Source: Escherichia coli
Lineage (GTDB): Bacteria; Pseudomonadota; Gammaproteobacteria; Enterobacterales; Enterobacteriaceae
Strand: one strand, 5' to 3'
NCBI RefSeq assembly: GCF_044324875.1
Contig: NZ_CP172188.1
Length of the DNA stretch: 64,000 nucleotides
The translations under genes and the position numbers were made by a program. The notes under the pieces were generated by a model, which made no database searches, had not been told where the DNA came from, and saw nothing but the letters and a program-made list of their open reading frames with translations. This document shows, one piece after another, positions 6,432-41,762 of this stretch. Position 1 is the stretch's first letter. Every line of letters begins with the position of its first letter.

Positions 6432-6647
6432 ATGGCTACTATCCCTACCCCAACTCATTCTGAATTTATCTGGCGTTTCTATTCCTGCCAAAAACACCTG
6501 TATATCTGCGTCATGGCTGCAACCGAAGCAGAAGCTCGTTCATACCTTCCTGAAGAACCCTGCATTTTTGCCGCACGCTTCACTCTTGATGCGATGGAGA
6601 TCCTCAATTACTGGAATCTGCCAATGAACTGCGTGGAGGTGCACTGA
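6432..6647 (+). CDS. icd: Icd-like small protein (host cell division inhibitor family)
   Basis: About 71 aa, paralogous to two other copies in the window (EFIWRFYSC...AATEAEARS...CVEVH); stop overlaps the ant start. Confidence 0.7.
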   Translation: MATIPTPTHSEFIWRFYSCQKHLYICVMAATEAEARSYLPEEPCIFAARFTLDAMEILNYWNLPMNCVEVH

Positions 6648-7588
6648 TGAATCTGTCCATCTCTCAAAAAGCGACAATGACCAGCATTGAGATCGCGGAA
6701 CTGGTAGGAAGTCGCCAAGATAGTGTGAAGAGAACTATCGAAACACTGGCTAAAAAGAGTGTGATCCAATTTCCACAATCTGTGGAAATTGAAAATAAAC
6801 AATCAGTTGGCCCTCGTCGATTTTCCAAGGCTTACATCTTTGAAGGCGAACAAGGCAAGCGCGATAGTATCATTGTCGTCGCACAGCTCTCTCCGGAATT
6901 CACCGCCCGGCTGGTGGACCGCTGGCGCGAACTGGAGAATGCCAGGGGACCGTTAAAATCAAAAGCCGAAATCCTGGCTGAAATGGCGCAAATGCATCTT
7001 GAGCATGAACGCCGGATCAACGCCGTAAATGCCCAGGTAGCCGAGGTATCAGCACAAGTATCGATGGTCGCTGAAACACTCGAGCAAATAAAGAAAGGCA
7101 ATATGCCGGAAGGCTACATTGGCTACCGCCAGCTGGCGGCGAAATGCGGCCTGACTGAAGCCAAATGTCGCAACCTGGTTAACGCTTACCGGATACCCAC
7201 TGATACGCATGAGTTTTTGACTCCCGACGGTTTGCTTGCGCGACGCTCAATTGTGGCCCTGGCCCCCTTCCGGAAAGCCTTTAAGCAGGTTATGTCGGAG
7301 GCAGAACCACGCAACAAACGCTGGTATCATCCAAAGATGGGGATGTTTCAGGCAATCCACCATCCTGTGCCTGAAAGTCCAAAGGCAAACCTGTCGTTGC
7401 ATACCGCCAGAGAGAGGATTAAAACAGGGTATGCAATCGTATGCCGTCGAGCATCTTGGCCTGAAGGTGTATGGGTATGGCCCGAAGGTGGATCACGAAA
7501 GCACTGGCGCACTATCCGGGATGGGAAAATCCATGCGATTGATTTAGCTCCAGAGGATGTTGTTGCTACGGACTGGATTGTTAGTTAA
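6647..7588 (+). CDS. ant: Rha-family phage antirepressor (Ant), copy 1
   Basis: N-terminal Rha-like TSIEIAELVGSRQDSVKR; C-terminal ~200 aa near-identical to the copy at 39035..40033. Confidence 0.8.
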   Translation: MNLSISQKATMTSIEIAELVGSRQDSVKRTIETLAKKSVIQFPQSVEIENKQSVGPRRFSKAYIFEGEQGKRDSIIVVAQLSPEFTARLVDRWRELENARGPLKSKAEILAEMAQMHLEHERRINAVNAQVAEVSAQVSMVAETLEQIKKGNMPEGYIGYRQLAAKCGLTEAKCRNLVNAYRIPTDTHEFLTPDGLLARRSIVALAPFRKAFKQVMSEAEPRNKRWYHPKMGMFQAIHHPVPESPKANLSLHTARERIKTGYAIVCRRASWPEGVWVWPEGGSRKHWRTIRDGKIHAIDLAPEDVVATDWIVS

Positions 7589-7596
7589 TTACTGTT

Positions 7597-7618
7597 GCCC
7601 CGGCCTGTCCGGGGCTTT
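7597..7618 (+). terminator. rho-independent terminator hairpin after ant
   Basis: gccccggcctgtccggggc stem-loop followed by TTT; same hairpin after the other two ant copies. Confidence 0.6.
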
Positions 7619-23315: not shown

Positions 23316-24977
23316 TTAACCTAACTTCGCCCAGGTATCACGCAGCCCAACGGTGCGGTTAAATACCGGTTTTTCCGCCGTAGAATGGCGGCTATCGAGG
23401 CAGAAGTAACCTTCACGCTCAAACTGGAATGCTTTACCCGCAACCGCATCTTTCAGCGACGGTTCAGCAAAGCCCTGTTTGATCACCAGCGATTCCGGGT
23501 TAATCACCGACAGGAAATCATCCGCAGCACCTGGGTTAGGCACGCTGAACAGACGATCGTACAGGCGGATTTCAACCGGCAGCGCATGTGCCGCGCTCAC
23601 CCAGTGAATAACGCCTTTCACTTTACGACCATCTGCCGGATCTTTGCTTAAGGTGTCGGCGTCATAAGTACAGAAGATGGTGGTGATATTGCCTTCGGCA
23701 TCTTTCTCCACGCGTTCAGCCTTAATGACGTAAGCATTACGCAGACGCACTTCTTTACCCAGCACCAGACGTTTGTACTGCTTGTTAGCTTCTTCGCGGA
23801 AATCGGCGCGGTCGATCCAAATCTCACCGCTAAACGGCACCTGACGGCTACCCATTTCCGGTTTGTTCGGATGGTTCGGCATGGTGACCATTTCGCCTTC
23901 GCCCTGGTAGTTTTCGATAACCAGTTTCACCGGATCGATAACCGCCATTGCGCGCGGCGCATTTTCGTTGAGATCTTCACGGATGCAGGATTCCAGCGAC
24001 GCCATCTCAATGGTGTTGTCCTGCTTGGTCACGCCGATGCGTTTGCAGAACTCACGAATAGAAGCCGCAGTGTAACCACGACGACGCAGACCGGAAATGG
24101 TCGGCATACGCGGGTCATCCCAGCCTTCAACGTGTTTGTCGGTCACCAGCAGGTTCAGCTTACGCTTGGACATCACGGTGTATTCCAGATTCAGGCGCGA
24201 GAATTCGTACTGGCGCGGGTGAACAGGAATGGTGATGTTGTCCAGCACCCAGTCGTACAGGCGACGGTTGTCCTGGAACTCAAGCGTACACAGAGAGTGC
24301 GTAATACCTTCCAGCGCATCGCTGATGCAATGGGTGAAGTCGTACATCGGGTAGATGCACCACTTGTTGCCAGTCTGGTGGTGTTCAGCAAATTTAATGC
24401 GGTACAGCACCGGATCGCGCATTACGATAAATGGCGACGCCATGTCGATTTTCGCACGCAGGCAGGCTTTACCTTCTTCAAAACCACCGGCACGCATTTT
24501 TTCGAACAGCGCCAGGTTCTCTTCAACGCTGCGATCGCGGTACGGGCTGTTTTTACCCGGCTGCGTCAGGGTGCCGCGGTATTCGCGGATCTGTTCCGGC
24601 GTCAGTTCGTCAACATACGCCAGGCCTTTGTTGATCAGTTCAACAGCATAGGCGTGGAGCTGATCAAAATAATCGGAGGAGTAACGGATGTTGCCAGACC
24701 AGTGAAAACCTAACCATTCAACGTCGTTTTTAATCGACTCGACGTACTCGATATCTTCTTTTACCGGGTTAGTGTCGTCGAAACGCAGGTTGCACTGGCC
24801 TTTATAGTCCTGGGCGATCCCGAAGTTCAGGCAGATAGATTTCGCATGACCAATATGCAGATAGCCATTCGGTTCCGGCGGGAAACGGGTATGTACTGTG
24901 GTGTGCTTACCACTGGCCAGATCTTCATCGATGATCTGACGAATAAAGTTAGTCGGGCGGGCTTCTGCCTCACTCAT
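23316..24977 (-). CDS. glnS: glutaminyl-tRNA synthetase
   Basis: 553 aa; class I aaRS HIGH ([13 protein letters not shown]) and KMSKS-like (VMSKRK) motifs; essentially collinear with E. coli GlnS as recalled from memory. Confidence 0.95.
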
Positions 24978-28298: not shown

Positions 28299-29104
28299 TG
28301 CTTGATTCAATAGGTGAAGTTAAAGCCTTCAAAATTCTGTCAGATGCCGGTATCTCTACACCAGAATCTATAACCATAAGCCGGGCAGCTTCTGTAAAAG
28401 CCTCATCGCTCGCCAGCGCCATACAGGGAATAGTTCACGCCGATAAAACCTATCCTGATTCTGTTTCGGCCTGGACTACTCAATTGCTTGGCTTTTCTGA
28501 ACAGCTCAATGAGGCCAGCAAAGCGTCTTCATCACTGGCTGATTCTCTTTCCCCATACACCAAGCCATCAGAGCTGTTACAGATGAAGATTGGCTGGGAA
28601 TGCTACGCAAAAGGTAACGAGCTGACCCCCATACCTGCTTTCGCCCTTGTTGAGGGAATGGGGAATGTTTCCATTCCGCAATCTCTAACGGACGCATTGA
28701 CGGCGCTAAAACTTGATGCTCTGAAAACCGCCATGAACGCCATTAACGCAAAAATTGAAGCTGCCGGAAGTGCTGGTGGTGGTGAAAGCAATGGTGGACA
28801 GGGTGGTGCTGGGGGCGCTCAGGCTCCAGTCATTACTCAGGATGAAATTGATGCTTTACGGGAAGCAGTGACAGCCGCCGAAGTTTTACTCTCCGAAATT
28901 AACTCAGCAAGTGAGGGTGTCGTAGCCCTTACAGGTCGCATTAAAACGTCAACCACTCAGGCAACCAAAGGTTTAGAGAACGCTGTCGCCATCACGTTAA
29001 CTGGTTCTCTACTGGATGATGCAGTAATGAGTCCGGCAATCAGTTTAATCATGCCACAAGGCGTTATTGATGCGCTCCAAAAGAACACCAAAAAGGAACC
29101 ATAG
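28298..29104 (+). CDS. hypothetical phage protein (268 aa), Ala/Ser/Thr-rich
   Basis: ATG 28298 overlaps the upstream stop (TAATG); ORF track 28199 is an upstream extension. Confidence 0.45.
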   Translation: MLDSIGEVKAFKILSDAGISTPESITISRAASVKASSLASAIQGIVHADKTYPDSVSAWTTQLLGFSEQLNEASKASSSLADSLSPYTKPSELLQMKIGWECYAKGNELTPIPAFALVEGMGNVSIPQSLTDALTALKLDALKTAMNAINAKIEAAGSAGGGESNGGQGGAGGAQAPVITQDEIDALREAVTAAEVLLSEINSASEGVVALTGRIKTSTTQATKGLENAVAITLTGSLLDDAVMSPAISLIMPQGVIDALQKNTKKEP

Positions 29105-29159
29105 AAACACCACTTAGGCACACAAAAGGATGTATATTGGTACATGTTTAACACCAAAA

Positions 29160-29633
29160 ATGAACCTGAAGAGGATGGTTTTGAAAAAGATAATTTTGAT
29201 TGTAATTGCGCTTTTAGCCATTTCTGGAATTTACCGAACAACGACGGCAGTTATCGAACACATCAGGTATGTCCGATCGCTTGAAGACTCAAAATCACAA
29301 CTGGAAAGCACGAACAACACGCTTTCTACCGCATTACAGTTAAGTGAGAACGCTCGCTCAGCCATGCTGACCGAAAACGAAAGAATTAAAGCACTGGAAA
29401 AGGAGTACCAGCGCAAAACAGCAGAACTGAATGCCAACCTAATCAAACAACGAGAGGAAAGCCAGAATGAAATCACTCGCCTTGAAAATGCGTTGCGCCG
29501 TGCTGGGATTAACGATGTGCGTGTGCCTGATGACGTTATCAGGATGCAGCGGGAACGGGCAAAAGCCATCAACCAGCGTGCCAGTGAAAATTACCGTAGA
29601 AGCCACCAGCAAGCCGCAGGCAAATCTGATTGA
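29160..29633 (+). CDS. i-spanin (Rz-like) candidate
   Basis: N-terminal TM helix (KKIILIVIALLAISGIY) followed by coiled coil; contains an embedded out-of-frame lipoprotein ORF. Confidence 0.45.
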   Translation: MNLKRMVLKKIILIVIALLAISGIYRTTTAVIEHIRYVRSLEDSKSQLESTNNTLSTALQLSENARSAMLTENERIKALEKEYQRKTAELNANLIKQREESQNEITRLENALRRAGINDVRVPDDVIRMQRERAKAINQRASENYRRSHQQAAGKSD

Positions 29634-29793
29634 TTACTCCCCTTGTTTAGTGCCAGAGGACACGCCAGTGCTGTTAAACAAGTATCCGACATACGCTGAA
29701 CAGTTATTCAGCACGATCGACGAATGCAACCAACGAAACGCACTGAATAACCAAAGAAACAGGGAGATTTGGGAAGGGAAGGGGCGGCAGTGA
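29467..29793 (+). CDS. o-spanin (Rz1-like) lipoprotein candidate, overlapping Rz in another frame
   Basis: Signal peptide with lipobox LSGC; starts inside and extends past the Rz-like gene. Confidence 0.45.
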   Translation: MKSLALKMRCAVLGLTMCVCLMTLSGCSGNGQKPSTSVPVKITVEATSKPQANLIDYSPCLVPEDTPVLLNKYPTYAEQLFSTIDECNQRNALNNQRNREIWEGKGRQ

Positions 29794-29820
29794 GCTTCAC
29801 AAAATCTATATAGCTATTTT

Positions 29821-29846
29821 ATGTTAGAAAAATAATTTGAATTTTC
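29821..29846. promoter_or_regulatory. operator-like motif upstream of immunity module 2
   Basis: atgttagaaaaataatttgaattttc; near-identical inverted copy at 40562..40592 upstream of module 3. Confidence 0.4.
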
Positions 29847-30019
29847 GAACATAAACAATAAAATAAATCATCAAAAATTTGATGTTGATCTTCCATGTTT
29901 TCAGGCTTATATTCACGCCGTTGCAGCAAATTCTGCGACCGGGTTTAGCAGCCTGAATGTACATGCGGACAACCGCAGATATCCGATATTGCGGTATTTT
30001 TGTGTCCGTAAAACCATGT

Positions 30020-30110
30020 TACGCCCGAATTATGGTGGGGCGTGATGGGGAGGCTTCGGCCTGCTGGTTTCATGTACGCCAGTCTGCTAACCCCGTCACG
30101 TCCTGCCACC
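30020..30110 (+). ncRNA. c4-like antisense RNA region of immunity module 2 (boundaries approximate)
   Basis: Element ctgctaa (about 30083) is complementary to ttagcag at 29945 and 30116 in the icd leader; compensatory changes in module 3. Confidence 0.45.
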
Positions 30111-30160
30111 CGTTTAGCAGCGGGTAGCAGGTTGTTAAACCTGTACATGAGGCCGTAACT

Positions 30161-30385
30161 ATGGTTAATGCCAATCCTTGCTCACGTCCAGAATTCATCT
30201 GGCGTTTTCACTCCCTGCAAAAACACTGCGATCACTTCGCAATTGCCGCAACTGAAAAAGAAGCCCGTTCTCTGATCCCTGATCAGTATGGTGTTCTTAC
30301 TGGTCGTTTCTCTACTTCCCCACAACCAAACACTAATCCCTGGTATCGCAATATTACCAATCCCGGAATTGCGGAGGCACACTGA
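30161..30385 (+). CDS. icd: Icd-like protein, module 2
   Basis: Paralog of the 6432 and 40248 copies; stop overlaps the ant start. Confidence 0.7.
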   Translation: MVNANPCSRPEFIWRFHSLQKHCDHFAIAATEKEARSLIPDQYGVLTGRFSTSPQPNTNPWYRNITNPGIAEAH

Positions 30386-31305
30386 TGGATATCTGCATTC
30401 TTGAAAAGCCATCAATGACCAGCATTGAGATCGCGGAGCTGGTGGGAAGTCGTCCAGATAACGTAAAAATATCAATAGAGCGCCTGGCTAAATCTGGAGT
30501 TATTCAACTTCCTGCATTGCAGGTTTTCGAAAAAATCAATAACTTAGGACTACGCCGTAGTGTCGAGGCTTACGTCTTCGAAGGCGAGCAAGGCAAACGA
30601 GACAGCATTATTGTCGTTGCGCAGCTCTCTCCCGAATTCACCGCCCGGCTGGTGGACCGCTGGCGCGAACTGGAAGAACAAGTACGCCAGCCGTTGACCG
30701 AAATAGAGATGATCGCCGCAATGGCTGCAAATGCAGTTCAGCAGCAAAAGCGGCTTCATGTTGTTGAGTCAAAGGTTAGCCAGGTTGCTGAAACCGTCGA
30801 GCAGATCAAGAAGGGCAACATGCCAGAAGGTTACATTGGCTACCGCCAGCTGGCGGCGAAATGTGGCCTGACTGAAGCCAAATGTCGCAACCTGGTTAAC
30901 GCTTTCCGGATTCCCACCGATACGCATGAGTTTTTAACTCCAGATGGTTTGCTTGCGCGACGCTCCATTGTGGCCCTGGCCCCCTTCCGGAAAGCCTTTA
31001 AGCAGGTGATGTCGGAGGCAGAACCACGCAACAAACGCTGGTATCATCCGAAGATGGGGCTGTTTCAGGCAATCCATCATCCTGTGCCTGAAAGCCCAAA
31101 GGATAATCTGTCACTACATACCGTCAGAGAGAAGATCAGGACTGGATACGCAACAGTGTGTCGTCGTTCTTCCTGGCCTGAAGGTATATGGGTGTGGCCC
31201 GAAGGTGGATCACGAAAGCACTGGCGCACTATCCGGGACGGGAAAATCCATGCTATTGATTTAGCGCCAGAGGATATTGTTGCTACGGACTGGATTGTTA
31301 GTTAA
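30385..31305 (+). CDS. ant: Rha-family antirepressor (Ant), copy 2
   Basis: Rha-like N-terminus; C-terminal domain homologous to the other two copies. Confidence 0.8.
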   Translation: MDICILEKPSMTSIEIAELVGSRPDNVKISIERLAKSGVIQLPALQVFEKINNLGLRRSVEAYVFEGEQGKRDSIIVVAQLSPEFTARLVDRWRELEEQVRQPLTEIEMIAAMAANAVQQQKRLHVVESKVSQVAETVEQIKKGNMPEGYIGYRQLAAKCGLTEAKCRNLVNAFRIPTDTHEFLTPDGLLARRSIVALAPFRKAFKQVMSEAEPRNKRWYHPKMGLFQAIHHPVPESPKDNLSLHTVREKIRTGYATVCRRSSWPEGIWVWPEGGSRKHWRTIRDGKIHAIDLAPEDIVATDWIVS

Positions 31306-31313
31306 TTACTGTT

Positions 31314-31336
31314 GCCCCGGCCTGTCCGGGGCTTTC
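31314..31336 (+). terminator. rho-independent terminator after ant copy 2
   Basis: gccccggcctgtccggggc hairpin followed by TTT. Confidence 0.6.
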
Positions 31337-31340
31337 GTGA

Positions 31341-31745
31341 CTAAAAATCTGTTCGCTGTCGCCATGCGTTTTTTAACTCAGGAATATCCGCCATTTCAAT
31401 TAACTTGCGAAGTCCAGCACTGACTTTCCCATTGCCAACCATAGCAAGCCAATCTCTTACAGCTTTCGGCATGTAGAGCGTTGCAGTTACCGGCTCTTCA
31501 ACCCTGGCAGGACATCCGCATACAGGCCATTTAATTGATTCCATAACTTCGGATGCCGGGGTGAGGGCGGGGACATTGAGTATATCTCTACCAGAAAACT
31601 GGATAACGATCCGTTCAGCGAGCGAGAGTATCTCACTTTCGGCAAGAATTGATGCCAACTGCGCCTCAACAAGAAAGCGACTTGTTGTGTTCAGAGAGTG
31701 GCTCTTAGCGCCATTTTTATACGAAACAAAGATTCGATACGCCAT
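31341..31745 (-). CDS. hypothetical protein (134 aa), operator-proximal
   Basis: ORF with an operator-like motif immediately upstream of its start. Confidence 0.45.
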   Translation of the reverse strand: MAYRIFVSYKNGAKSHSLNTTSRFLVEAQLASILAESEILSLAERIVIQFSGRDILNVPALTPASEVMESIKWPVCGCPARVEEPVTATLYMPKAVRDWLAMVGNGKVSAGLRKLIEMADIPELKNAWRQRTDF

Positions 31746-31754
31746 AACTCTAAT

Positions 31755-31778
31755 GATTTGTGTTAGAAAACTAAAATT
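31755..31778. promoter_or_regulatory. operator-like motif copy
   Basis: gatttgtgttagaaaactaaaatt, between divergent genes. Confidence 0.35.
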
Positions 31779-31903
31779 AAATCACATAACAACATGTGTG
31801 TTAATAGATTTTATTTTACTAAACCTATTGACTAAATCACAAAGTAGGTATTGTTAGCCCGTCAAAAGAACCTTCACGCCGCGCCCGAATTTAGGGCTTA
31901 ACC

Positions 31904-33601
31904 GTGAATAAAAACATTCAGCCAGCTCGTGATCGCGAGCGCGAGATTATGAATCGGGCGGCAAGCGTCATGGCTATGACCGTCGATCCGACCACCGATG
32001 CAGCAGGCAACATGATTGCTGACCAGGCAGTAATGATGGAAAACCTGGATAAAGCAATCCAGAAAGTGCCTATGTTTGAAGGCGTAAATCCAGAGGTCGC
32101 TCGTCAGATCACTGGTGGGTGGGCTATGTCTCTGCATGAGTATAAACGTCAACATGGTCATTACCCGGCAAGTGACATCCTGGCGAACGCACACATGGCT
32201 CTTGAACGCCTGATGACTGAATGTGCCAGTGATACCCATGAAGGCACGGGTAAGGCAATGTTTGAGTCTGTCGCGCAATCAATGCGTAGCTCTGACGGCG
32301 TAATGAAAGTTGCTCAATATGCTGCTCTAATTCTGCCTGCCTCTCTGGGCGCTGCTACCAGTGATGCCTGTACTTTTGTTCCTTGTGATCGTGACGAGTC
32401 AAATATTTATGAACTGGTCAACGTAGCAGGCACAAAATTCGGCACCTTCAAACAAGGTGACGAACTGAATATGCAGTCAGCTGGTGTTTATTCTCAAATG
32501 AAGCGCCTGTATACCCTTTCCACTAAAGGGGATGGCAGCACCAAAACCTTCCAGTTCGACATCCAAAATTTTGAGGGACAATCCTGCCCGCTTCGCGCTG
32601 GTTATAACAAACTGCTGATCAACCGCAAACCGTCCAAAGTTGACGACGGCGATGGCAACCTTTATTTCAATGCTAAAGACAGCAAAGGTAATGCTTTCTC
32701 AGCGACTGCCAAAGTTGCCTATGACACTGGTGTCATTGACATTACATTTACCCAGGCTCCGCCAGAAGGTACTGAAATTGCTGTTCAGGTCGAAATTAAC
32801 ATCGAGCGCAATCCAAGCCTGATTCCGGTGATCAACCAGGCTATGCGTAAGTACGAAGTTCGTCCGTCCCAGTACGTAATTGCTTCCGAACACACCGTAA
32901 TGTCCGCTTCCGATTTAAGCCGTGAACACGGCCTTGAATTGGCGGCACTTCAGTTCTCCGCAATGCGGAACTGGATCTCCCATGAAACCGACATCATGCG
33001 TCTGCGCACCCTGGTATTCCATACCGTTTATGGTCGTGAATTTGATGTGGCTCTGCCTGAAGCTCAAAACTATGAGTCCTGGGTCGGCCTCCTGCGCCAC
33101 GCAGTAAACGCCCTGTCTCAGGAAATGGCAAACCGCACCCTGACCACAGGTATTCGCGGTGGCTTCGCAGGTGGTGACGCAGCTAACTTCCTGCGTTCTC
33201 TGCCTCCACAGCACTTCCAAATCGCGCCGGGCTACGTTCAGTCACCGTATGTGCAGTACATCGGCACCCTGTTTGGCACGATTCGTATTTACGAAGTGCC
33301 GCAGCCTGTGTGTGAGCAATTCAAGGCTCAGGGATATGACTTAGGTCTGGATGACATTTATTTCTATGGTCGCGGTGAAGGCATCGGTAAAGCCGGGCTG
33401 ATCGCTGGTGATGCGGTCCCAGCAATCCCGTATGTGCACGAAACCAATCCATCTCTCGTTAACCGCACCACTCTCTGGGGTAGTGCTATCAACGAAGTCC
33501 ACCCGCGCAACGGTGAGAATTATTTCGCCCGCCTGCGTCTGACTCGTGCCAAAGAAGGTGCTATCGACATGCTGACAGGCAAGGTTAACGAAAAAAAGTG
33601 A
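31904..33601 (+). CDS. large phage structural protein (565 aa), function unassigned
   Basis: Long ORF heading the sheath/tube block (GTG start); no diagnostic motif recognised by eye. Confidence 0.5.
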   Translation: MNKNIQPARDREREIMNRAASVMAMTVDPTTDAAGNMIADQAVMMENLDKAIQKVPMFEGVNPEVARQITGGWAMSLHEYKRQHGHYPASDILANAHMALERLMTECASDTHEGTGKAMFESVAQSMRSSDGVMKVAQYAALILPASLGAATSDACTFVPCDRDESNIYELVNVAGTKFGTFKQGDELNMQSAGVYSQMKRLYTLSTKGDGSTKTFQFDIQNFEGQSCPLRAGYNKLLINRKPSKVDDGDGNLYFNAKDSKGNAFSATAKVAYDTGVIDITFTQAPPEGTEIAVQVEINIERNPSLIPVINQAMRKYEVRPSQYVIASEHTVMSASDLSREHGLELAALQFSAMRNWISHETDIMRLRTLVFHTVYGREFDVALPEAQNYESWVGLLRHAVNALSQEMANRTLTTGIRGGFAGGDAANFLRSLPPQHFQIAPGYVQSPYVQYIGTLFGTIRIYEVPQPVCEQFKAQGYDLGLDDIYFYGRGEGIGKAGLIAGDAVPAIPYVHETNPSLVNRTTLWGSAINEVHPRNGENYFARLRLTRAKEGAIDMLTGKVNEKK

Positions 33602-33747
33602 TGGTGGCGAACGTGTCGGTATCACCAACGTCACTTGACGTAGATGAAGGTGAAACTATCGCCGCGAACACTTCAAAGGCACAGAAAAAAACAAAGCAGA
33701 AGTAAGGCAAAAACACGCCCCTGATTAAGGGGCGTTCAGGAGAAAAA

Positions 33748-34026
33748 ATGGCAAACATTCAAGTAACTATCACGCCATCTGACGCAACAGACAAATCTTT
33801 CACTGTTGAGTCAGATCACCCTGAAATTGTCCGGGTTGATGGCACTACATGTACCGCTCTTAAGGCCGGGCAGGCAGTGCTGACAATCAAAACAAATGAC
33901 GGCAATAAAACCGCACAGTGCACAGTCACTGTTAGGGAGGCACATAAAAGCGTAAGCACCGTCAGTGTTGAACCAACTACGAAAGAAGTAACCGTAGGCG
34001 ATAACTTCACGGTAAGCGAATCCTGA
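33748..34026 (+). CDS. bacterial Ig-like (Big_2-type) domain protein (92 aa)
   Basis: ITPSDATD...FTVESDHPEIVRVDGTTCTALKAGQAVLTIKT pattern typical of Big_2 domains; AGGAG RBS. Confidence 0.5.
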   Translation: MANIQVTITPSDATDKSFTVESDHPEIVRVDGTTCTALKAGQAVLTIKTNDGNKTAQCTVTVREAHKSVSTVSVEPTTKEVTVGDNFTVSES

Positions 34027-34093
34027 TCAGAGGCTGCCCATTAACCGTGGGTAGCCTTGCCTCGTTCTCTCGCTTTAGAGGATAAGAACCAGC

Positions 34094-35752
34094 ATGAATA
34101 AGATTAGTTTTTCGGTAGGGCAGGCAGCTGGCGTTGCTGTAATGTCAGTAAATGCTGACGCTACCCTCACCAATACCAGCGGTGGCGCATCCGTCTTTGC
34201 TGGGCTTGTAATATCGCGTCGTGGCGCACCGGGTAAGGTACTGAAAGTTGACGATGCGACTTATCAAAGCGTATTAGGTTCACCGATTCACCCTCGCCAG
34301 GGCGCGGCATTTGAACCATATCGCCACGTGGAGCGTGCAGTAAAAGGCGGCTCTGGATATGTCGTTCGAGTTTGCGCTAAAGACATGAAGGTGCCGGGTA
34401 TTTCTGTTTCCGTTGTGGGCAGAGCAAAAGCGGCAAAGGCGAGTAAAGAACTTTCCGTTGAACCAACTGAAACCACAGTAAATCCAGGTGACACATTAAG
34501 CGTTGGTGTTGCTTCAACTGCAACGACTCAATCAGTGACCTTCACACCCAAAGAGACGCCCCAGATTAAAGGTGGAGAGAAGGCATTATTCTTCATCAAA
34601 GATGGTGATGCATCTCAAAATCGCACGTTATCACTAACTCGCGATGATGAAGAAAGCGAACTCTTTACGCTGACGCTGAAAGAAAAACAAACCGATGGGT
34701 CCATTGAGGTGCTGGAAAGCCACCAAGTGTCTTTCAATCCAGAAGGCACCAACGACATGGGCCAACCAGCATGGATTCCGACACTGCTTGAAAGCCAGTC
34801 CTCTCGCATTGGTGCCGTACTGGCAGATAATGCAGAAGCATCCGCTGCTCAACTCATTTTTGAGGATGTAGCTTTTGAAGGTGGTACTGATGGAAATCTG
34901 TCCGAAATTAACGCTGCAGACTATCTGGAAGCATTAAAGGTTCTCGAAGCTTCAGAGGTTAATTACACCGCATTGCTGTCACTGGGTTGTTATGACGCAT
35001 CCGCCTTAGCCGCAATCAAAAAGCTGGCTGAAGATGTTCGCGTAGACATGTTCTATGACCTGAAGGGCAACCAGACACCTGAAAACGCTATTTCAGAAGC
35101 GAAAAGCCATAGTTTTGGCGGCTCACATCAACCAAGCCGTTACTACTTCCCACTTTCCTGCCGAGATACCTTCACTGGGATGAATGTCGTCTATGGCATT
35201 AGTTGCGACGCATTCGTAGCGAAAGCAAAAGGAGTTGCGCTGGTACCGGATGTTGGTGGTTGGCATTACGCACCCGCAGGTATATCACGCGCGATTATTG
35301 ATCGACAGAACATTGCCCGAATTCCAAATATCGGTGCGGTTGATCGTGAAGCGTTCGTTCTTGCGCGCATTAATCCAGTTTCAGTTGCTGCTGACGGGTC
35401 CGTTTACATTGACGACTCTTTAACAACTTACAGCAAAAACAACTATCTGCGATTCCAGCATGTGTCTTCCTTGATGAACGCCATCGCCAGAGATTTCTAT
35501 GAAGTAGCTCAGGCGATTAAGCACGAACCGGATGGCATTACCAAAGAAACGCTAATGAAAGCAATGACTGAATTGCTTGACCGTTACGTTGCAGCCGGTG
35601 CGCTGGTTACTCCACGTGACAAGTCCCAGGGTGAAGATCCATATGTTGTTCAGGTTGTCCAAAAGGACATCGATCTGTGGGAAGTGTCCTGGTCTGTTTG
35701 TCCGACCGGTACAGCTCGCCGAATCGTCGGTAAGCCAATTCTGATGCGCTGA
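34094..35752 (+). CDS. tail sheath protein with internal Ig-like insertion
   Basis: C-terminal region parallels the P2 FI sheath as recalled from memory; 552 aa; GAGGA RBS. Confidence 0.55.
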   Translation: MNKISFSVGQAAGVAVMSVNADATLTNTSGGASVFAGLVISRRGAPGKVLKVDDATYQSVLGSPIHPRQGAAFEPYRHVERAVKGGSGYVVRVCAKDMKVPGISVSVVGRAKAAKASKELSVEPTETTVNPGDTLSVGVASTATTQSVTFTPKETPQIKGGEKALFFIKDGDASQNRTLSLTRDDEESELFTLTLKEKQTDGSIEVLESHQVSFNPEGTNDMGQPAWIPTLLESQSSRIGAVLADNAEASAAQLIFEDVAFEGGTDGNLSEINAADYLEALKVLEASEVNYTALLSLGCYDASALAAIKKLAEDVRVDMFYDLKGNQTPENAISEAKSHSFGGSHQPSRYYFPLSCRDTFTGMNVVYGISCDAFVAKAKGVALVPDVGGWHYAPAGISRAIIDRQNIARIPNIGAVDREAFVLARINPVSVAADGSVYIDDSLTTYSKNNYLRFQHVSSLMNAIARDFYEVAQAIKHEPDGITKETLMKAMTELLDRYVAAGALVTPRDKSQGEDPYVVQVVQKDIDLWEVSWSVCPTGTARRIVGKPILMR

Positions 35753-35795
35753 TTTATAACCCCCGCTAAATGATGCGGGGGAGAGAGGTTTGAAT

Positions 35796-36530
35796 ATGAA
35801 AAATTATACTGCTGATCCTTTTATGCGTGCGATTTTCGGTTCTGGCTGCTTTGAAAGCGGTGATAAATCCACGCAGGACAATAATGATAACGCCATGCTG
35901 GAAAGCGCAGGACAGAAAGGAAAGGACACTCAACCAAAGCCCAAAGACGACATTGAAACCGCGATGATGGAAGCGGTTGAATCCCGTGCACAAGGTGATA
36001 TGCGCAGCCTGGCAGCTTCCATGATTGCTGGTTGGGTTGAAGATGGTGATCCGGAGGCTGACTCATTTGATGCATTAGCAATCACTATGGCTGGCCTGGC
36101 TGATATCGATGAAGACACCGATTTCACCGATGAGCAAATCGATGCTTATAACGATGCTCTCGCAGCTCTTGCTGATGCAGCTGTTGCGCTTGGCGCTGAT
36201 CAGGACGATGTAACCGAAATGATCGACGATGAAGATGACTCAGCTGCCGAACGTGTTTATGACGCTCTTTCCGAAAGCGACACCGACATGATGGAAACAG
36301 CTATTGCCATTTACACCGTTGCTGGTGGTGATAGCGCAATGCTGGAAGCGGTACGTAAAAAAGTGGTTCGTGATGGCAAGGTTACCATCATCCGTAAACG
36401 CCCGCGTCCTCGCCGCATGACGTCATTGCAAAAACAGGCGCTGAAAAAAGCACGCCGCAAAGCACATACATCCGTAGCGAATATCAACCGCAAAAAATCA
36501 ATGCGCATTCGCAAAAAACGCGGTTTGTAA
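35796..36530 (+). CDS. acidic phage protein with basic C-terminal tail (244 aa)
   Basis: ATG 35796 after a GGGGGAGAGAGG RBS; strongly acidic body, K/R-rich C-terminus. Confidence 0.45.
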   Translation: MKNYTADPFMRAIFGSGCFESGDKSTQDNNDNAMLESAGQKGKDTQPKPKDDIETAMMEAVESRAQGDMRSLAASMIAGWVEDGDPEADSFDALAITMAGLADIDEDTDFTDEQIDAYNDALAALADAAVALGADQDDVTEMIDDEDDSAAERVYDALSESDTDMMETAIAIYTVAGGDSAMLEAVRKKVVRDGKVTIIRKRPRPRRMTSLQKQALKKARRKAHTSVANINRKKSMRIRKKRGL

Positions 36531-36578
36531 GTGACATAGGCCGCCTGCAAAGGTGGCCTCTACCTGGGAGAAATAGCT

Positions 36579-37175
36579 GTGTATTGCGGAGCAAGTTTAG
36601 CTGATGGCATAAGCCCTTTTTTAAAGGTTTATATTATAAACGAGTCCAATACAGATATGGTGGTCGGCTATATTGGAGAAGGTTCGTCGGCGGAATTAGC
36701 ATCACTATGGCAATCCCCATTTGAAGATAAAGCTATGGGAAGTTTGTTAGGCTCAATTAGTGAAGCAGCGTCATCATTTGCCAGCATAGTTCAAAATTTA
36801 AGTGGACTGACAAGCAAAAGCCGATTCAATTCCACGTTAATCTGGGAAGGACAACAGCCACCAGAGTTCAATCTTGTGCTGGATTTCTTAGCAACATCCA
36901 ATGCAAAAATTGAAGTTAATGACGCAATTACAACCTTATTGAAAATGGCCTCTCCAGAGTTAAATGACGTTGCGCCAATGGGAAGGATTCCTGAAACAGT
37001 CACAATTAATATTGGCAGAAACGTCCTGCTAACTGGCGTTGTTATCAAAAGCGTGAGTTACCAACTGGACGCCCCGCGCACACCGGAAGGCTATTTCACT
37101 CATAACACGGTAACCCTGCAATGCAGCGGTAACACATCGATCAACCGTAGCAATATCTCATCTGTTTTTGTGTAG
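36579..37175 (+). CDS. phage structural protein (198 aa)
   Basis: ORF with GTG start and TGGGAG RBS in the tail gene block. Confidence 0.4.
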   Translation: MYCGASLADGISPFLKVYIINESNTDMVVGYIGEGSSAELASLWQSPFEDKAMGSLLGSISEAASSFASIVQNLSGLTSKSRFNSTLIWEGQQPPEFNLVLDFLATSNAKIEVNDAITTLLKMASPELNDVAPMGRIPETVTINIGRNVLLTGVVIKSVSYQLDAPRTPEGYFTHNTVTLQCSGNTSINRSNISSVFV

Positions 37176-37183
37176 GAGTATTT

Positions 37184-37675
37184 ATGTCCGGTTTTGCAAA
37201 TACAAAAGCCGATATGGCCTTTCTAAAATCCCGGTTTAATAAAAACCTGGCTGCAGGCGAAAAACTTATTGGTTCTGAATATTGGATGACCATTAAGGGT
37301 TACGAACATCTGTCTGTACTAGTTCGTACAGCTCAGTTACCAGAAATGACACGTGAAGATGTGGAGGATTACGCCCCTGGTGGCATGAAATTCAACCAGC
37401 ACGGACCATTACGCAACTCTGGTGAATTTCAGGTCACATGCGCGGAAACTATCGAAGGCGCAGTTCTCGCCGCTGTAAAACAGATGGTATACGGAAAAGA
37501 ATATCTGGAAATTACCTTACAGGCGGCGGCTGAATCGAATAGCGGTAACCATAAAGGTCTGATCCGCACATATTCTCATTGCAAAGTGTATTCCGACGCC
37601 GTGGACTTCTCATCCGAAGACGTAACGGCGGTCGTTAAACCTTCCCTGCGCATTGTTTACAACTGGGCGGAATAA
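37184..37675 (+). CDS. tail tube protein candidate (163 aa)
   Basis: Size and position downstream of the sheath gene; AGGAG RBS. Confidence 0.45.
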   Translation: MSGFANTKADMAFLKSRFNKNLAAGEKLIGSEYWMTIKGYEHLSVLVRTAQLPEMTREDVEDYAPGGMKFNQHGPLRNSGEFQVTCAETIEGAVLAAVKQMVYGKEYLEITLQAAAESNSGNHKGLIRTYSHCKVYSDAVDFSSEDVTAVVKPSLRIVYNWAE

Positions 37676-37729
37676 TCCCTATCCCGCCCTTGTGGCGGGA
37701 ACATCCTTGTTATTGAGTTGTAGGCAACA

Positions 37730-38281
37730 ATGACACCAATTGAATTATTAGAAAGCGTTAAAGAGCGATTTAATCCGCTGCTTGTGCGTGAAGAAGAAAC
37801 GTTGAAAGCATTCCTGATCAAAGCTCTGACCACGTATCAGGACAGGGCAGGGGTAGTGAAAACGTTAAAACTTGAAAGAGCTGGTGGTACTGCAATCCCG
37901 TTGCCAGAAGATTATCTCTCTCTGGTTCATGTTACCGACAACAACGGCCTGTTGGTCTATTCGGATGAATTATCCGGCTTTATTGAATTAGAGCTAACAG
38001 GTTCAGAACGCTGGCCTTTTCGAATGCTGTATCTGGTTAATCTACGCGACAGAAAGCTGGATGAATGGCAAGTGCCTCCTGCAATCATTGGAATGCTAGA
38101 GGAATATCTGGAGGCGCTTATCAATGTAAGAAATGTCGCCCGGCAGCGTAGAGCGTCCATCGACGGGAAATTTGACTACTCCGATCTGCCCGATGAAGCC
38201 ACGCTATATGCCCGCGTGCAGGAGATTGAGGAAAAAATGTCCTCAAACCGGGCCATTATTCCGGGGGCTACCATTTTTTAA
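37730..38281 (+). CDS. phage tail-associated protein (183 aa)
   Basis: ORF in the structural block. Confidence 0.4.
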   Translation: MTPIELLESVKERFNPLLVREEETLKAFLIKALTTYQDRAGVVKTLKLERAGGTAIPLPEDYLSLVHVTDNNGLLVYSDELSGFIELELTGSERWPFRMLYLVNLRDRKLDEWQVPPAIIGMLEEYLEALINVRNVARQRRASIDGKFDYSDLPDEATLYARVQEIEEKMSSNRAIIPGATIF

Positions 38282-38296
38282 CGCTGGAGGCGCAGA

Positions 38297-39004
38297 GTGA
38301 GTATTTTCAGCAGCGTTGGTAGAACGTTGACCACCGCATTGTCATTTAACACGAAATCATTCACCAGCAACCTCATTAGCGACATTCTTGATAAAGCCAT
38401 ATCAGGCGGCGGGGTAAGCGGGAATTACAGTAGCGATATTGCCTACGGGAAAAATATTGTTGCTGCCGCTATGCGCATCCGTTACGCCCAGGGGTGGCAG
38501 TGGACCGTTGAAGTGGATGGTCTGAACGGCTTCGATATGTTCGTGAAGGATATCACCTACAGCAGTGGGAACATCGAGACAGAAAGCAAGGTGATCGGTA
38601 GCGTAGAATTCAGCAAGCCAACCTATGTTAGCGCCGGACCGGTCACTATGACCGTGAGGGATACCGAAGATGGCAAGATCATGGACTGGTTCAAAGAGCG
38701 TCGTTCTCGTGTAACAAATCCTGATGGAACAATAAACCTTCCTCCGGAATATCTGATGAAAATCCGTGTCTACCGGGTAACTCAGGACGGCGGAAAAGAA
38801 CTGGAAGAAGAAATGCGCGTATTTCCTACACAACTTGGGGAAATCACTCGCTCACGTGATCAGGTGTCAGAGTTCTTGTCATACCCAATCACTTTCCAGA
38901 AATACACATCCGCAGGCTCAGGTGTTTCTGCTTTGGTCAACGGTGCCGCTGGCATGGCTACAAGTGCCCTGAAAAATACTGCCAGTAACATAATTAAATT
39001 TTAA
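38297..39004 (+). CDS. phage tail-associated protein (235 aa)
   Basis: GTG start with GGAGG RBS; structural block. Confidence 0.4.
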   Translation: MSIFSSVGRTLTTALSFNTKSFTSNLISDILDKAISGGGVSGNYSSDIAYGKNIVAAAMRIRYAQGWQWTVEVDGLNGFDMFVKDITYSSGNIETESKVIGSVEFSKPTYVSAGPVTMTVRDTEDGKIMDWFKERRSRVTNPDGTINLPPEYLMKIRVYRVTQDGGKELEEEMRVFPTQLGEITRSRDQVSEFLSYPITFQKYTSAGSGVSALVNGAAGMATSALKNTASNIIKF

Positions 39005-39007
39005 AAA

Positions 39008-39026
39008 GCCCCGGACAGGCCGGGGC
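39008..39026. terminator. bidirectional terminator hairpin shared by the tail operon and ant copy 3
   Basis: gccccggacaggccggggc hairpin between convergent genes. Confidence 0.55.
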
Positions 39027-39034
39027 AACAGTAA

Positions 39035-40033
39035 TTAACTAACAATCCAGTCCATAGCAATAACATCCTCTGGAGCTAAATCAATAGCATGGATTTTCCC
39101 GTCACGGATGGTGCGCCAGTGCTTTCGTGATCCACCTTCGGGCCATACCCATACACCTTCAGGCCAGGAAGAACGACGACACACTGTTGCGTATCCAGTC
39201 CTGATCTTCTCTCTGACGGTATGCAGTGACAGATTATCTTTTGGGATTTCCGGTAAAGGATGATGGATTGCCTGAAACAGCCCCATCTTCGGATGATACC
39301 AGCGTTTGTTGCGTGGTTCTGCCTCCGACATAACCTGCTTGAAGGCTTTCCGGAAGGGGGCCAGGGCCACAATGGAGCGTCGGGCAAGCAAACCATCTGG
39401 AGTTAAAAACTCATGCGTATCGGTGGGAATCCGGTAAGCGTTGACAAGGTTGCGGCATTTGGCTTCAGTCAGGCCACATTTCGCCGCCAGCTGGCGGTAG
39501 CCAATGTAGCCTTCCGGCATATTGCCTTTCTTGATTTGCTCGACGGTTTCAGCGACTTTGGACACTTGTGCCGATACCTCGGCTACCTGGGCATTTACGG
39601 CGTTAATCCGGCGTTCATGTTCAAGATGCATTTGCGCCATTTCAGCCAGGATTTCGGCTTTTGATTTTAGCGGTGAGTGCTCCGGTATTAATTGCTTAAT
39701 ACGAAAATAGCTGTTTACCAGCTCACGTTGCACTTGCCAGGCCAGATCGTCATTGAATGACTTAACAATCATTAGATAACCGGACTCAGTGAACACGCGC
39801 AAACCGCGCGGGGGGACATTAATTCCAAAAGTGTCAAAAACGCCCTTTTCAGAGTAATCAATAAGATAGGTATCTACACCATCAACAAAACGGTGCTTGT
39901 TACGATGGAAAGTTGTTTTAGCTAATCCTTTTGGTCGCTCGTGCACCTCATCAATCATCTCAAAGGTCACTACACGCTGATTTTTATATTCGAGAGTCGG
40001 GAATGGTTTGTTATTGATAGTTACTGCGTCCAT
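39035..40033 (-). CDS. ant: antirepressor (Ant), copy 3, with a different N-terminal domain
   Basis: C-terminal ~200 aa near-identical to copy 1; N-terminal 130 aa unrelated to Rha (KilA-N/ORF6N-like); ATG 40033 overlaps the icd stop. Confidence 0.8.
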   Translation of the reverse strand: MDAVTINNKPFPTLEYKNQRVVTFEMIDEVHERPKGLAKTTFHRNKHRFVDGVDTYLIDYSEKGVFDTFGINVPPRGLRVFTESGYLMIVKSFNDDLAWQVQRELVNSYFRIKQLIPEHSPLKSKAEILAEMAQMHLEHERRINAVNAQVAEVSAQVSKVAETVEQIKKGNMPEGYIGYRQLAAKCGLTEAKCRNLVNAYRIPTDTHEFLTPDGLLARRSIVALAPFRKAFKQVMSEAEPRNKRWYHPKMGLFQAIHHPLPEIPKDNLSLHTVREKIRTGYATVCRRSSWPEGVWVWPEGGSRKHWRTIRDGKIHAIDLAPEDVIAMDWIVS

Positions 40034-40248
40034 TAATGCACCTCCACGCAGTTCATTGGGCGGTTCCAGTAGGTCAAAACGTCCAGGGCATCGAGTTTGA
40101 AGCGAGCCGCAAAAATGCACGGATCTGTAGGAAGAAATGAACGCGCTTCAGCCTCAGTAGCTGCCATTACGGTGATATAGGTGTGTTTTGTGCAGGAATA
40201 AAAGCGCCAGATGAATTCTGGACGTGAGCAAGGATTGGCATTAACCAT
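40033..40248 (-). CDS. icd: Icd-like protein, module 3
   Basis: Paralog (MVNANPCSRPEFIWRFYSC...CVEVH). Confidence 0.7.
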   Translation of the reverse strand: MVNANPCSRPEFIWRFYSCTKHTYITVMAATEAEARSFLPTDPCIFAARFKLDALDVLTYWNRPMNCVEVH

Positions 40249-40299
40249 AGTTACGGCCTCATGTACAGGTTTAACAACCTGCTACCCGCTGTCAAACAG

Positions 40300-40390
40300 G
40301 TGGCAGGGCGTGACAGGGTTGACAGACTGGCGTACATGAAACCAGCAGGCCGAAGCCTCCCCATCACGCCCCACCATAATTCGGGCGTAA
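40300..40390 (-). ncRNA. c4-like antisense RNA region of immunity module 3 (boundaries approximate)
   Basis: Paralogous to 30020..30110, with the pairing element changed to ctgtcaa and both target sites changed to ttgacag. Confidence 0.45.
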
Positions 40391-40561
40391 CGTGGTTTAC
40401 GGACACAAAAATACCGCAATATCGGAAATCTGCGGATGTCCGCATGTACATTCAGGCTGTCAAACCTGGTCGCAGAATTTGCTACGACGGCGTGAATATA
40501 AGCCTGAACATCTGGAAGATCAACATCAAATTGTTGATGATTTATTTTATTATTCATGTTT

Positions 40562-40592
40562 GAAAATTCAAATTATTTTTCTAACACAATAC
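40562..40592. promoter_or_regulatory. operator-like motif upstream of immunity module 3
   Basis: gaaaattcaaattatttttctaacacaatac; inverted copy of the module 2 site. Confidence 0.4.
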
Positions 40593-40699
40593 GAAAGGGA
40601 GTGAAAATTATTCTCCAGCGTTAACCCAAACAAAATTATGTGTGCTGGAGGGTTGCTCATTTCCCGTCAGCACCCACGCCCTCAACGATAGCGGGTAGG

Positions 40700-41005
40700 G
40701 AAGGAAGCGCAATTTTGAGGGCATTTTTTACATCATCAATCCATATGTAATGAAGGCATTCTTTACACATTTCAATAATATCAATCAGTTAGCACAGTGA
40801 ATGATAATAAAAAAGCGCAATAAGAATGCACGATACGCACGATATTGGTTGAGGGTAATTTTTACATAATCCTTATATATCAATATGTTATATAAAAACA
40901 CAACTTACCAATAACAAGATACATGCAATTAAGATGTAAAAATTGCCCTCAATTGCCGATCGTTAAGGGCAAATTCTACACCTTGAGAGGGGTGTAAAAA
41001 TTGCC
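40700..41005. repeat. iteron cluster plus AT-rich region downstream of repA (incC-like)
   Basis: Copies of the TGAGGGCAA(T)TTTTACA iteron in both orientations (about 40713, 40842, 40937, 40961, 40987) around an AT-rich stretch. Confidence 0.6.
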
Positions 41006-41006
41006 C

Positions 41007-41762
41007 TTAAGACTGCTGATAGGTAAATTTTATCCTGGTAACTTTGCCGCCTTCCGTCACCTCTGAGAAGACTATTTTCATTTTTGTATTTTTTTCAATC
41101 TCTGCTACAGCCTTCGTTAAAAAACTTCTCTTAAATTCGGCATACCGCTGATAGCTTTTTGGTAACCCATAACGCTCCCGCATCCATTCGACGCCAAGTA
41201 TGGCAAAGCCGCTTCCATCATCCTTCCTGTACTGGCATAAGGACTCATAAAGCCGCATAGAATAAGGATTTGTAAGGCGAGATACTTCGGTAAAATTCAG
41301 CCTTGTGAATCTCTTATCAAGCAGAGTAAAAAACGGCATGAGATATGGATTAAGATGAATAATGTAAGTCCCACGCCGTGGTGAATAGGCATCCTTAATC
41401 ATCCAAGGATAAGACTCATAACTGTCTTCTGATTCGGTCGATTCATCAGGGTTATATATCGTAACTTTCTTCTCGCTAAGACCTGAAATGGCCTTACGAA
41501 TATCCTTGCTGGCTTCAGCAGAGGGCAAATTATACATCTCTGCATATTCGTTGACCGTCAACTCACAGGCACCTGAACCAAGAACGCCATCCTTAGAAGC
41601 ATAGCGAAGCCTTCCCACCACAATAAACAACAGTCGCTTTTGGTCGCGAGTCAGGTGATAAGCAGCCTCCGTGATCTCATTGGCTTGTGCCAAACTACGA
41701 CTAATAGGTGTCGCTGACTCAATCAGGCTGACGGCTTTTGCTGTTAATTCCGCTCTGTTCAT
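41007..41762 (-). CDS. repA: RepE(F)-like plasmid replication initiator
   Basis: Collinear with F-plasmid RepE as recalled (EAAYHLTRDQKRLLF..., EASKDIRKAI, NPYLMPFF, RLNFTEVSRLTNPYSMRLYESLCQYRK); likely start ATG 41762 gives 251 aa. Confidence 0.8.
   Translation of the reverse strand: MNRAELTAKAVSLIESATPISRSLAQANEITEAAYHLTRDQKRLLFIVVGRLRYASKDGVLGSGACELTVNEYAEMYNLPSAEASKDIRKAISGLSEKKVTIYNPDESTESEDSYESYPWMIKDAYSPRRGTYIIHLNPYLMPFFTLLDKRFTRLNFTEVSRLTNPYSMRLYESLCQYRKDDGSGFAILGVEWMRERYGLPKSYQRYAEFKRSFLTKAVAEIEKNTKMKIVFSEVTEGGKVTRIKFTYQQS

Follow-up and report, generated by a model that had tools for sequence, protein, structure and literature searches.

C4 is the textbook case of antisense RNA specificity, and it has so far been defined by one pair of phages, P1 and P7. 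In their immI regions the sites a1, b1, b′, a′, a2 and b2 follow one another in this order, b2 lies at the ribosome-binding site of icd, and icd is translationally coupled to a downstream antirepressor gene. P1 and P7 differ in both a′ and b′, by 4 nt in all, which is enough to prevent cross-reaction (PMC5320573, citing Citron & Schuster 1990), and a′ is described as the contact that gives specificity (secondary source PMC5320573). Our statements on P1 and P7 rest on the GenBank annotation of both phages and on secondary sources (PMC5320573, PMC12197685, PMC6906374). In phage P22, too, a small antisense RNA, sar, blocks translation of the antirepressor and keeps lysogeny, but sar is cis-encoded opposite ant with full complementarity, whereas C4 is co-transcribed on the same strand and has two short complementary patches. 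In the Salmonella prophage Gifsy-1, IsrK acts in trans to promote translation of the antirepressor (Hershko-Shalev et al. 2016, PMC4825925); a stable RNA downstream of it, STnc1160, was not interpreted as a C4 repressor (PMC4825925). Here we describe three complete c4-icd-ant modules, numbered 1 to 3, in a 64,000-nt stretch of Escherichia coli DNA (NCBI RefSeq assembly GCF_044324875.1, contig NZ_CP172188.1), referred to below as the window.

The Rfam C4 model (RF01695) matched all three modules at 70-77 bits, above its gathering score of 45. The upstream leaders matched c4-a1b1 (RF03163) in modules 2 and 3 and isrK (RF01394) in module 1. The initial annotation, made from the letters alone, had placed modules 2 and 3 correctly, had called them c4-icd-ant immunity modules, and had named a covariance-model search as a check. 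The search, the sites homologous to those of P1 and the Icd homologues all bear out that identification. Modules 2 and 3 lie on opposite strands, with the following features.

Module 2
29822-29913, plus strand: control region, with a candidate C1-type operator followed by two tandem sigma-70-like promoters
29822-29838, plus strand: candidate C1-type operator TGTTAGAAAAATAATTT, a repeated 17-mer
29837-29864 and 29885-29913, plus strand: tandem sigma-70-like promoter-like sites, the upstream one assigned by analogy with P2c4, the downstream one at the position of P1c4 in the P1 annotation
29907-29966, plus strand: a1b1 leader (RF03163, 53.5 bits; fold)
29945-29951, plus strand: a1 TTAGCAG, homologous to the annotated a1 of P1
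29959-29966, plus strand: b1 GTACATGC
about 29964-30005, plus strand: terminator-like hairpin with a U-run after b1 (fold)
30034-30110, plus strand: C4 RNA, 77 nt by homology to the P1 c4 RNA (RF01695 match at 30028-30113, 71.7 bits; P1/P7 alignment; fold)
30070-30077, plus strand: b′ TCATGTAC, in a C4 loop
30084-30090, plus strand: a′ CTGCTAA, the P7 allele
30114-30150, plus strand: targets a2 TTAGCAG (30114-30120) and b2 GTACATGA (30143-30150), with exact complementarity; b2 overlaps the icd ribosome-binding site (GAGG)
30161-30385, plus strand: icd homologue, 74 aa, a variant like orf19 of D6 (phrog_1426, E=5.7e-39; alignment)
30385-31305, plus strand: antirepressor, 306 aa, with a Rha-like N-terminal domain (phrog_63, E=3.1e-64; weak Pfam Phage_pRha match, 0.002)
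31314-31332, plus strand: terminator hairpin

Module 3
40495-40586, minus strand: control region, with an operator-like 17-mer (40570-40586) and tandem promoter-like sites (40571-40544 and 40523-40495)
40442-40501, minus strand: a1b1 leader (RF03163, 55 bits)
40457-40463, minus strand: a1 TTGACAG, homologous to the annotated a1 of P1
40442-40449, minus strand: b1 GTACATGC
40299-40375, minus strand: C4 RNA (RF01695 match at 40296-40381, 69.9 bits; fold)
40332-40339, minus strand: b′ TCATGTAC, identical to b′ of module 2
40319-40325, minus strand: a′ CTGTCAA, the P1 allele
40259-40295, minus strand: targets a2 TTGACAG (40289-40295) and b2 GTACATGA (40259-40266), the latter at the icd ribosome-binding site
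40033-40248, minus strand: icd homologue, 71 aa (phrog_1426, E=2.5e-37)
39035-40033, minus strand: antirepressor, 332 aa from the ATG at 40033, with an ORF6N N-terminal domain (Pfam ORF6N, 1.3e-11; phrog_1726 and phrog_63)
39008-39026, minus strand: terminator hairpin

Modules 2 and 3 were aligned with P1, P7 and phage D6 and compared with the a1, b1, c4, a2 and b2 features of the P1 record. The initial annotation had pointed to a two-base swap that appears at three places in coordination, and the swap indeed falls in the antisense element a′ and in both of its complementary sites, a1 and a2. In the order a1/a′/a2, module 2 carries 5′-UUAGCAG/CUGCUAA/UUAGCAG, exactly as P7 does, and module 3 carries 5′-UUGACAG/CUGUCAA/UUGACAG, exactly as P1 and D6 do. 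The suggested likeness to the P1-P7 specificity pair is thus literal: the two modules carry the P7 and P1 alleles of a. The leaders as a whole are less alike than had been stated; they are about 90% identical over 453 nt, and the swapped bases (6) make up a minor share of the 42 mismatches. Any given 7-mer is expected about eight times in 64 kb on both strands, so that complementary 7-mers might be chance matches or alignment artefacts with no RNA-RNA contact behind them. This is almost certainly not the case here. In the alignment, the swapped 7-mers occupy the very columns of a1, a′ and a2 as annotated in P1, which indicates positional homology, and the co-variation described below refutes chance.

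The antisense element that had been noticed is real, but it is only one of two. A second element, which had been missed, is identical in modules 2 and 3 (b′ TCATGTAC, b1 GTACATGC, b2 GTACATGA). Its antisense part, b′, lies in the loop of the second C4 hairpin. It is complementary to b2, which is situated at the icd Shine-Dalgarno sequence, and has a further match upstream in b1. The b allele of both modules, 5′-GUACAUG, is neither that of P1 (5′-GUUAGUG) nor that of P7 (5′-GAUUGUG). Thus P1 and P7 differ in a and also in b, whereas modules 2 and 3 differ in a only. In all three modules of the window, the complementarity is exact over 7 nt for a and 8 nt for b, and b2 abuts 5′-GAGG or 5′-GGAGG. 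The minimum free energy (MFE) folds of all three C4 RNAs have the P1/P7 architecture, with b′ in a loop and a′ in an unpaired junction. Near-identical C4 sequence, the same fold, the same layout of sites from a1 to b2, b2 at the icd ribosome-binding site and translational coupling of the Icd homologue to a downstream antirepressor are all shared with P1 and P7.

Related modules were collected for a population-wide comparison, about 240 overall, of which about 226 were fully parsed. Scanning IMG/VR for the exact P1-type C4 core gave 118 stretches, and the fully parsed P1-type set comprised 112 modules (107 from IMG/VR together with P1, P7, D6 and the two modules of the window). In 111 of the 112, a1 and a2 were both the reverse complement of a′, and b1, b′ and b2 matched; the sole exception was at a contig end. 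A metagenome scan added 43 modules, of which 41 were consistent, the exceptions lying on a contig of 4x coverage and on a 1.6-kb contig. We did not accept these three cases (L039, L213 and L225) as true a/b mismatches, since they come from contig ends or from low-coverage or short metagenome contigs and are probably assembly chimeras; the two metagenome cases (L213 and L225) may be chimeras between co-resident modules. In L213, the 4x contig, a P7-type a′ stands between a P1-type a1 and a P1-type a2.

Co-variation was measured on an alignment of 54 distinct related leaders, with 500 shuffles and with partners slid by 1-3 columns as controls. The a′:a2 and b′:b2 contacts were paired at 98.4%, with 181 double-sided changes, against 29-51% in the slid controls. 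The a1:a′ and b1:b′ contacts were paired at 99.9%, with 188 double-sided changes. No shuffle of the 500 reached the observed values, and the slid controls gave 23-51% across both tests. This co-variation supports the RNA-RNA pairing that the swap had suggested.

The P1-type lineage has two main a alleles and at least seven b alleles, and each of the two main a alleles was found together with each of the five common b alleles (10 combinations). In the DNA the sites are interleaved (a1, b1, b′, a′, a2, b2). This interleaving, together with the free reassortment of a and b while the triplets stay intact, implies selection on each RNA-RNA contact rather than simple linkage. The specificity of C4 systems would then be a two-part combinatorial address (a, b), as these sequences suggest.

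The same pattern was seen in a second lineage, the isrK-type, to which module 1 of the window belongs.

Module 1
6167-6245, plus strand: leader, isrK-type RNA (RF01394, 59.4 bits, gathering score 50; fold)
6193-6199, plus strand: a1 TTGGAAC, in a hairpin loop of the isrK-type leader
6210-6217, plus strand: b1 GCAAAAGG, single-stranded in the leader fold
6225-6239 with the following T-run, plus strand: intrinsic terminator of the leader (fold)
6296-6374, plus strand: C4 antisense RNA (RF01695 match at 6290-6377, 76.7 bits; MFE fold)
6334-6341, plus strand: b′ CCTTTTGC, in the loop of C4 hairpin 2
6349-6355, plus strand: a′ GTTCCAA, in the single-stranded junction of C4
6382-6420, plus strand: targets a2 TTGGAAC (6382-6388) and b2 GCAAAAGG (6413-6420), with exact complementarity to a′ and b′; b2 abuts the icd Shine-Dalgarno sequence GGAGG
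6432-6647, plus strand: icd homologue, 71 aa (phrog_1426, E=3.7e-41; 56% identity to P1 Icd)
6647-7588, plus strand: antirepressor, 313 aa, with a Rha-like N-terminal domain (phrog_63 'anti-repressor Ant', E=2.8e-60; ORF; alignment); its start overlaps the icd stop by 1 nt
7597-7615, plus strand: terminator hairpin GCCCCGGCCTGTCCGGGGC, the same sequence in all three modules

The address of module 1 (a′ 5′-GUUCCAA with a1 and a2 5′-UUGGAAC; b′ CCUUUUGC with b1 and b2 GCAAAAGG) is unrelated to the addresses of modules 2 and 3. Among 75 isrK-type modules the alleles form a two-by-two matrix, in which a′ is 5′-GUUCCAA or 5′-GUCUCAA and b′ is CCUUUUGC or CCUUUGAC. In both lineages the a alleles differ by a UC/CU dinucleotide swap. 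The a′ and a2 sites matched in 75 of 75 isrK-type modules; a1 alone was mismatched in two, L189 (IMGVR 2778261639_000014) and L142 (IMGVR 3300045988_157941), where a1 is of the other allele. The a1 site seems to be less constrained than a2.

The leaders of the two lineages are also alike in layout. The P1-type a1b1 leader has the layout of IsrK: one hairpin, a second hairpin that holds a1, an unpaired b1 and, ahead of c4, a terminator-like hairpin with a U-run; the folds were compared at 29918-30012 (plus), 40395-40490 (minus), 6167-6250 (plus) and in stretch L003:1520-1612. To judge from the folds, the two Rfam families, RF03163 and RF01394, appear to describe one functional element as it occurs in two lineages of C4. 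The P1-type leader might likewise be released as a short decoy RNA.

The three self-contained cassettes are very probably P1-immI-like operons, in identity and in mechanism. Each would be transcribed as a single RNA from tandem promoters, in modules 2 and 3 under a candidate operator of the prophage repressor. The transcript would carry, in order, the leader with the target mimics a1 and b1, the C4 RNA of about 77 nt, a2 and b2, icd, and the translationally coupled antirepressor gene. C4 (~77 nt) would be excised from this transcript, and the processed RNA would expose b′ as part of a hairpin loop and a′ within an unpaired junction. Pairing of C4 with a2 and b2 would block translation of icd and, through the coupling, synthesis of the antirepressor. 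The prophage would thus stay repressed, and a cassette with the same address on an incoming relative would be silenced too. From the IsrK-like layout, a1 and b1 in the leader could serve as a decoy for C4.

What would go beyond the known mechanism is the use of the address. We tentatively propose that the combinatorial two-part address (in the P1-type lineage at least two a by at least seven b alleles, in the isrK-type lineage two by two) lets one phage-plasmid hold up to four mutually orthogonal locked cassettes, that the pair of modules 2 and 3 shows a′ alone to set specificity, and that selection keeps the addresses of co-resident cassettes distinct. If this proposal is right, distinct addresses would broaden superinfection immunity or would gate different antirepressors independently. 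The replicon and its relatives serve as a natural panel of matched RNA and target sets, in which the two patches vary independently and several sets occur in one cell. If the a swap alone insulates, it would reveal which contact nucleates the recognition of the target by C4, would explain how several antirepressor switches are stacked on phage-plasmids without cross-talk, and would provide ready-made orthogonal riboregulators. If it does not, modules 2 and 3 are simply a redundant duplicate. With either outcome the basic mechanism is already known, and the value lies in comparison and quantification rather than in a new concept. The part worth following is the comparative pattern, namely the combinatorial address and the distinct addresses among co-resident cassettes.

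Several observations weigh against the proposal or against the likeness to P1. Modules 2 and 3 have one and the same b′/b2 pair, and this is the pair that covers the icd ribosome-binding site. The predicted cross-duplexes between these modules are strong, at -15.2 and -17.2 kcal/mol, or 76-87% of the cognate energy (40-55% for P1 and P7). The lack of address clashes is not statistically significant, with about 22 P1-type pairs and P roughly 0.06-0.13. The antirepressors have no homology to Ant1/Ant2 of P1 (BLASTP against P1 Ant1 gave E=0.42 and 0.53), and the consensus of the P1 C1 operator has 0 matches in the window at up to 3 mismatches.

The duplex energies were predicted with RNAduplex on accessible segments. 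RNAcofold was dropped for C4-target binding, because in a concatenated fold the contacts between loop and target become pseudoknots if the C4 stems are kept. Every cognate pair had a predicted energy of about -20 kcal/mol, module 1 against the others gave -3 to -6 kcal/mol, and P1 against P7 gave -8.2 and -10.5 kcal/mol. Modules 2 and 3 still have the b contact in common, hence the high energies of their cross-duplexes.

Since b′/b2 is shared and the predicted cross-duplexes are strong, cross-repression between modules 2 and 3 is quite possible. Either C4 RNA might repress both modules, the difference in a being a passenger polymorphism brought in by recombination with P1-like and P7-like relatives, and the two modules would then form one redundantly locked unit. 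The mosaic structure of the cassettes also fits this explanation; the module 2 locus of a related plasmid, pAPEC201603, has a P7-type leader with icd and an ORF6N ant like those of module 3. We consider it less likely than not, all the same. Mismatched a′/a2 pairs are nearly absent from the parsed modules despite free shuffling of a and b, the single case being L213, and this near-absence suggests that a two-base mismatch in a is selected against even with b matched. The reading of a′ as the contact that gives target specificity (secondary source PMC5320573) argues in the same direction.

The claim that modules 2 and 3 are heteroimmune is thus weakened by the shared b; heteroimmunity is plausible from the predicted duplexes. 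We estimate that the a swap weakens cross-repression between them substantially, perhaps not completely, and on these predictions a true functional orthogonality of the two modules is about an even call.

Address clashes were counted in 28 IMG/VR contigs with two or more modules, two metagenome contigs, the window, D6 and pAPEC201603. The same (a, b) address occurred twice on one replicon in only one contig of this sample, a possibly chimeric metagenome contig. The statistic given above assumes a chance of about 12% per pair that two addresses are identical, and it is to be read with the replicons being related to one another. Distinct addresses among co-resident cassettes are suggestive only at the level of these sequences.

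Identity to P1 Icd is 54-64% for the Icd homologues of the three modules, and in every module the stop of icd and the start of ant overlap by 1 nt. The antirepressors match PHROG 63, 'anti-repressor Ant' (that of module 3 also phrog_1726). Their N-terminal domains are of two kinds only, Rha-like in modules 1 and 2 and ORF6N in module 3, and not of a different kind in each module as had been suggested. The antirepressors of modules 1 and 2 are about 79% identical overall. The C-terminal part of about 175 residues is almost invariant in all three copies (7075-7588, 30790-31305 and 39035-39550), with variation in the N-terminal domains and linkers. The only matches of this shared C-terminal domain were PHROG 6610 and PHROG 7385, with none in Pfam. 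It is not related to P1 Ant1 and may be where the antirepressor touches the repressor. In P1, by comparison, the antirepressor is Ant1/Ant2 rather than a Rha-like or ORF6N N-terminal domain joined to this C-terminal domain.

In modules 2 and 3 the position of the downstream promoter corresponds to that of the P1c4 promoter in P1. Control by an operator of the P1 type (Op51 in P1) seems unlikely, as no consensus match was found at up to 3 mismatches; a different repeated 17-mer was found in its place. This asymmetric sequence, TGTTAGAAANNTAATTT, occurs six times in the window, against 0.24 expected, at 4964-4980 (plus), 5614-5630 (minus), 29822-29838 (plus), 31761-31777 (plus), 40570-40586 (minus) and 63733-63749 (minus). 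Its copies flank ref, precede the promoters of modules 2 and 3 and the capsid operon, and in one case lie near repL. The pattern resembles that of the dispersed C1 operators in P1, and the P1 consensus itself is absent; the 17-mer is therefore a candidate for a D6-type C1 operator.

The same terminator hairpin closes every cassette, and the 3′ half of ant is common to them all, which provides homologous boundaries for cassette exchange. An exchange of this kind is visible at the module 2 locus of pAPEC201603, where a P7a leader and a 3′ end like those of module 2 enclose icd and an ORF6N ant like those of module 3. (Stretch L122:18700-20450 of this plasmid, NZ_CP127300.1, was compared with 29780-31360 and 39000-40640 of the window.) The swap in pAPEC201603 and the truncated ant genes indicate, as far as such comparisons go, exchange and decay of cassettes between loci. 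Modules 2 and 3, which are inverted relative to each other, share 552 bp at 95% identity, and homologous exchange between them is possible. The initial annotation had raised a recombination-generated regulatory switch. The recombination part is borne out in a limited sense, since the cassettes are mosaic and parts have been exchanged between loci; of a programmed switch we found no evidence. A programmed inversion between modules 2 and 3 was considered and set aside, as nothing points to a dedicated switch.

Some cassettes could be decaying or silent duplicates without present function, gathered at recombination hotspots in the D6-like backbone. In favour of this, pAPEC201603 has truncated pseudogenes in place of two of its four antirepressor genes, and D6 has no modules at the module 2 and module 3 loci. 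For the window it is improbable: in each of the three cassettes the promoter-like sites, the C4 structure, the icd and ant ORFs and the terminators are intact and the a and b sets match perfectly, and the C-terminal 175 residues of the antirepressor have remained almost invariant across the three copies.

The DNA in and around module 2 matches Escherichia phage D6 as well as several hundred plasmids of E. coli, Salmonella and Shigella; the matching plasmids are about 90 kb long, non-mobilizable and bear phage genes. Among complete relatives, pAPEC201603 (NZ_CP127300.1) is the closest, with 97% identity over 96% of 29000-41500. These matches mark the window as part of a D6-like, P1-related E. 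coli phage-plasmid.

Carriage of several modules, which had been called unusual, is common. In the plasmid database PLSDB, the P1-type leader was found at 685 places in 575 plasmids and the isrK-type leader in 344 plasmids. Two to four modules were present on 28 of the 156 IMG/VR contigs that held any module. D6 has two and pAPEC201603 has four, including one adjacent to repL; in a D6-like Salmonella plasmid (pYU39_89), a second c4-icd region has already been mentioned (PMC6799933). The modules belong to a known system, and their multi-copy arrangement is common in this plasmid family.

D6 (MF356679) has the same backbone and gene order as the window. Of its two modules, the P1-type one adjoins repL and the isrK-type one adjoins ref, which is the locus of module 1. 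The D6 record annotates two icd/antirepressor pairs and does not annotate the C4 RNAs. D6 differs from the window in its addresses (P1a with 5′-ACUUACG in the repL-adjacent module; 5′-GUCUCAA with CCUUUUGC in the other). It also lacks both the cassette that stands in the window between the upfB-like and capsid genes (module 2 locus) and the one between tub and repA (module 3 locus). In pAPEC201603, a P7a/P1a pair with b = 5′-GUACAUG occupies the same two loci as modules 2 and 3. At its end, position 64000, the window has passed the portal and head-protease genes and stops just short of the expected position of repL, so that a fourth cassette probably lies next to repL, beyond this end. P1, by contrast, has one cassette, against three (probably four) on this replicon. 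A further c4-icd-ant cassette directly 3′ of repL was seen in NZ_CP127300.1 (stretch L239:4640-5984) and in D6 (L001:3001-4217).

Module 1 resembles the isrK-orf45-anrP region of Gifsy-1 in its order of parts: a leader of the isrK family that has a terminator of its own, then a processed-RNA region, then a small ORF coupled to an antirepressor. It differs in that a clear C4 RNA (76.7 bits) follows isrK and that the small ORF encodes an Icd homologue. By analogy, IsrK could act as an a1b1 decoy for C4, which would link the Gifsy-1 and C4 pictures.

A curious cargo gene is also present in the window. Full-length glnS, for glutaminyl-tRNA synthetase, lies at 23316-24977 on the minus strand, and it is also annotated in D6 (orf62) and in relatives.

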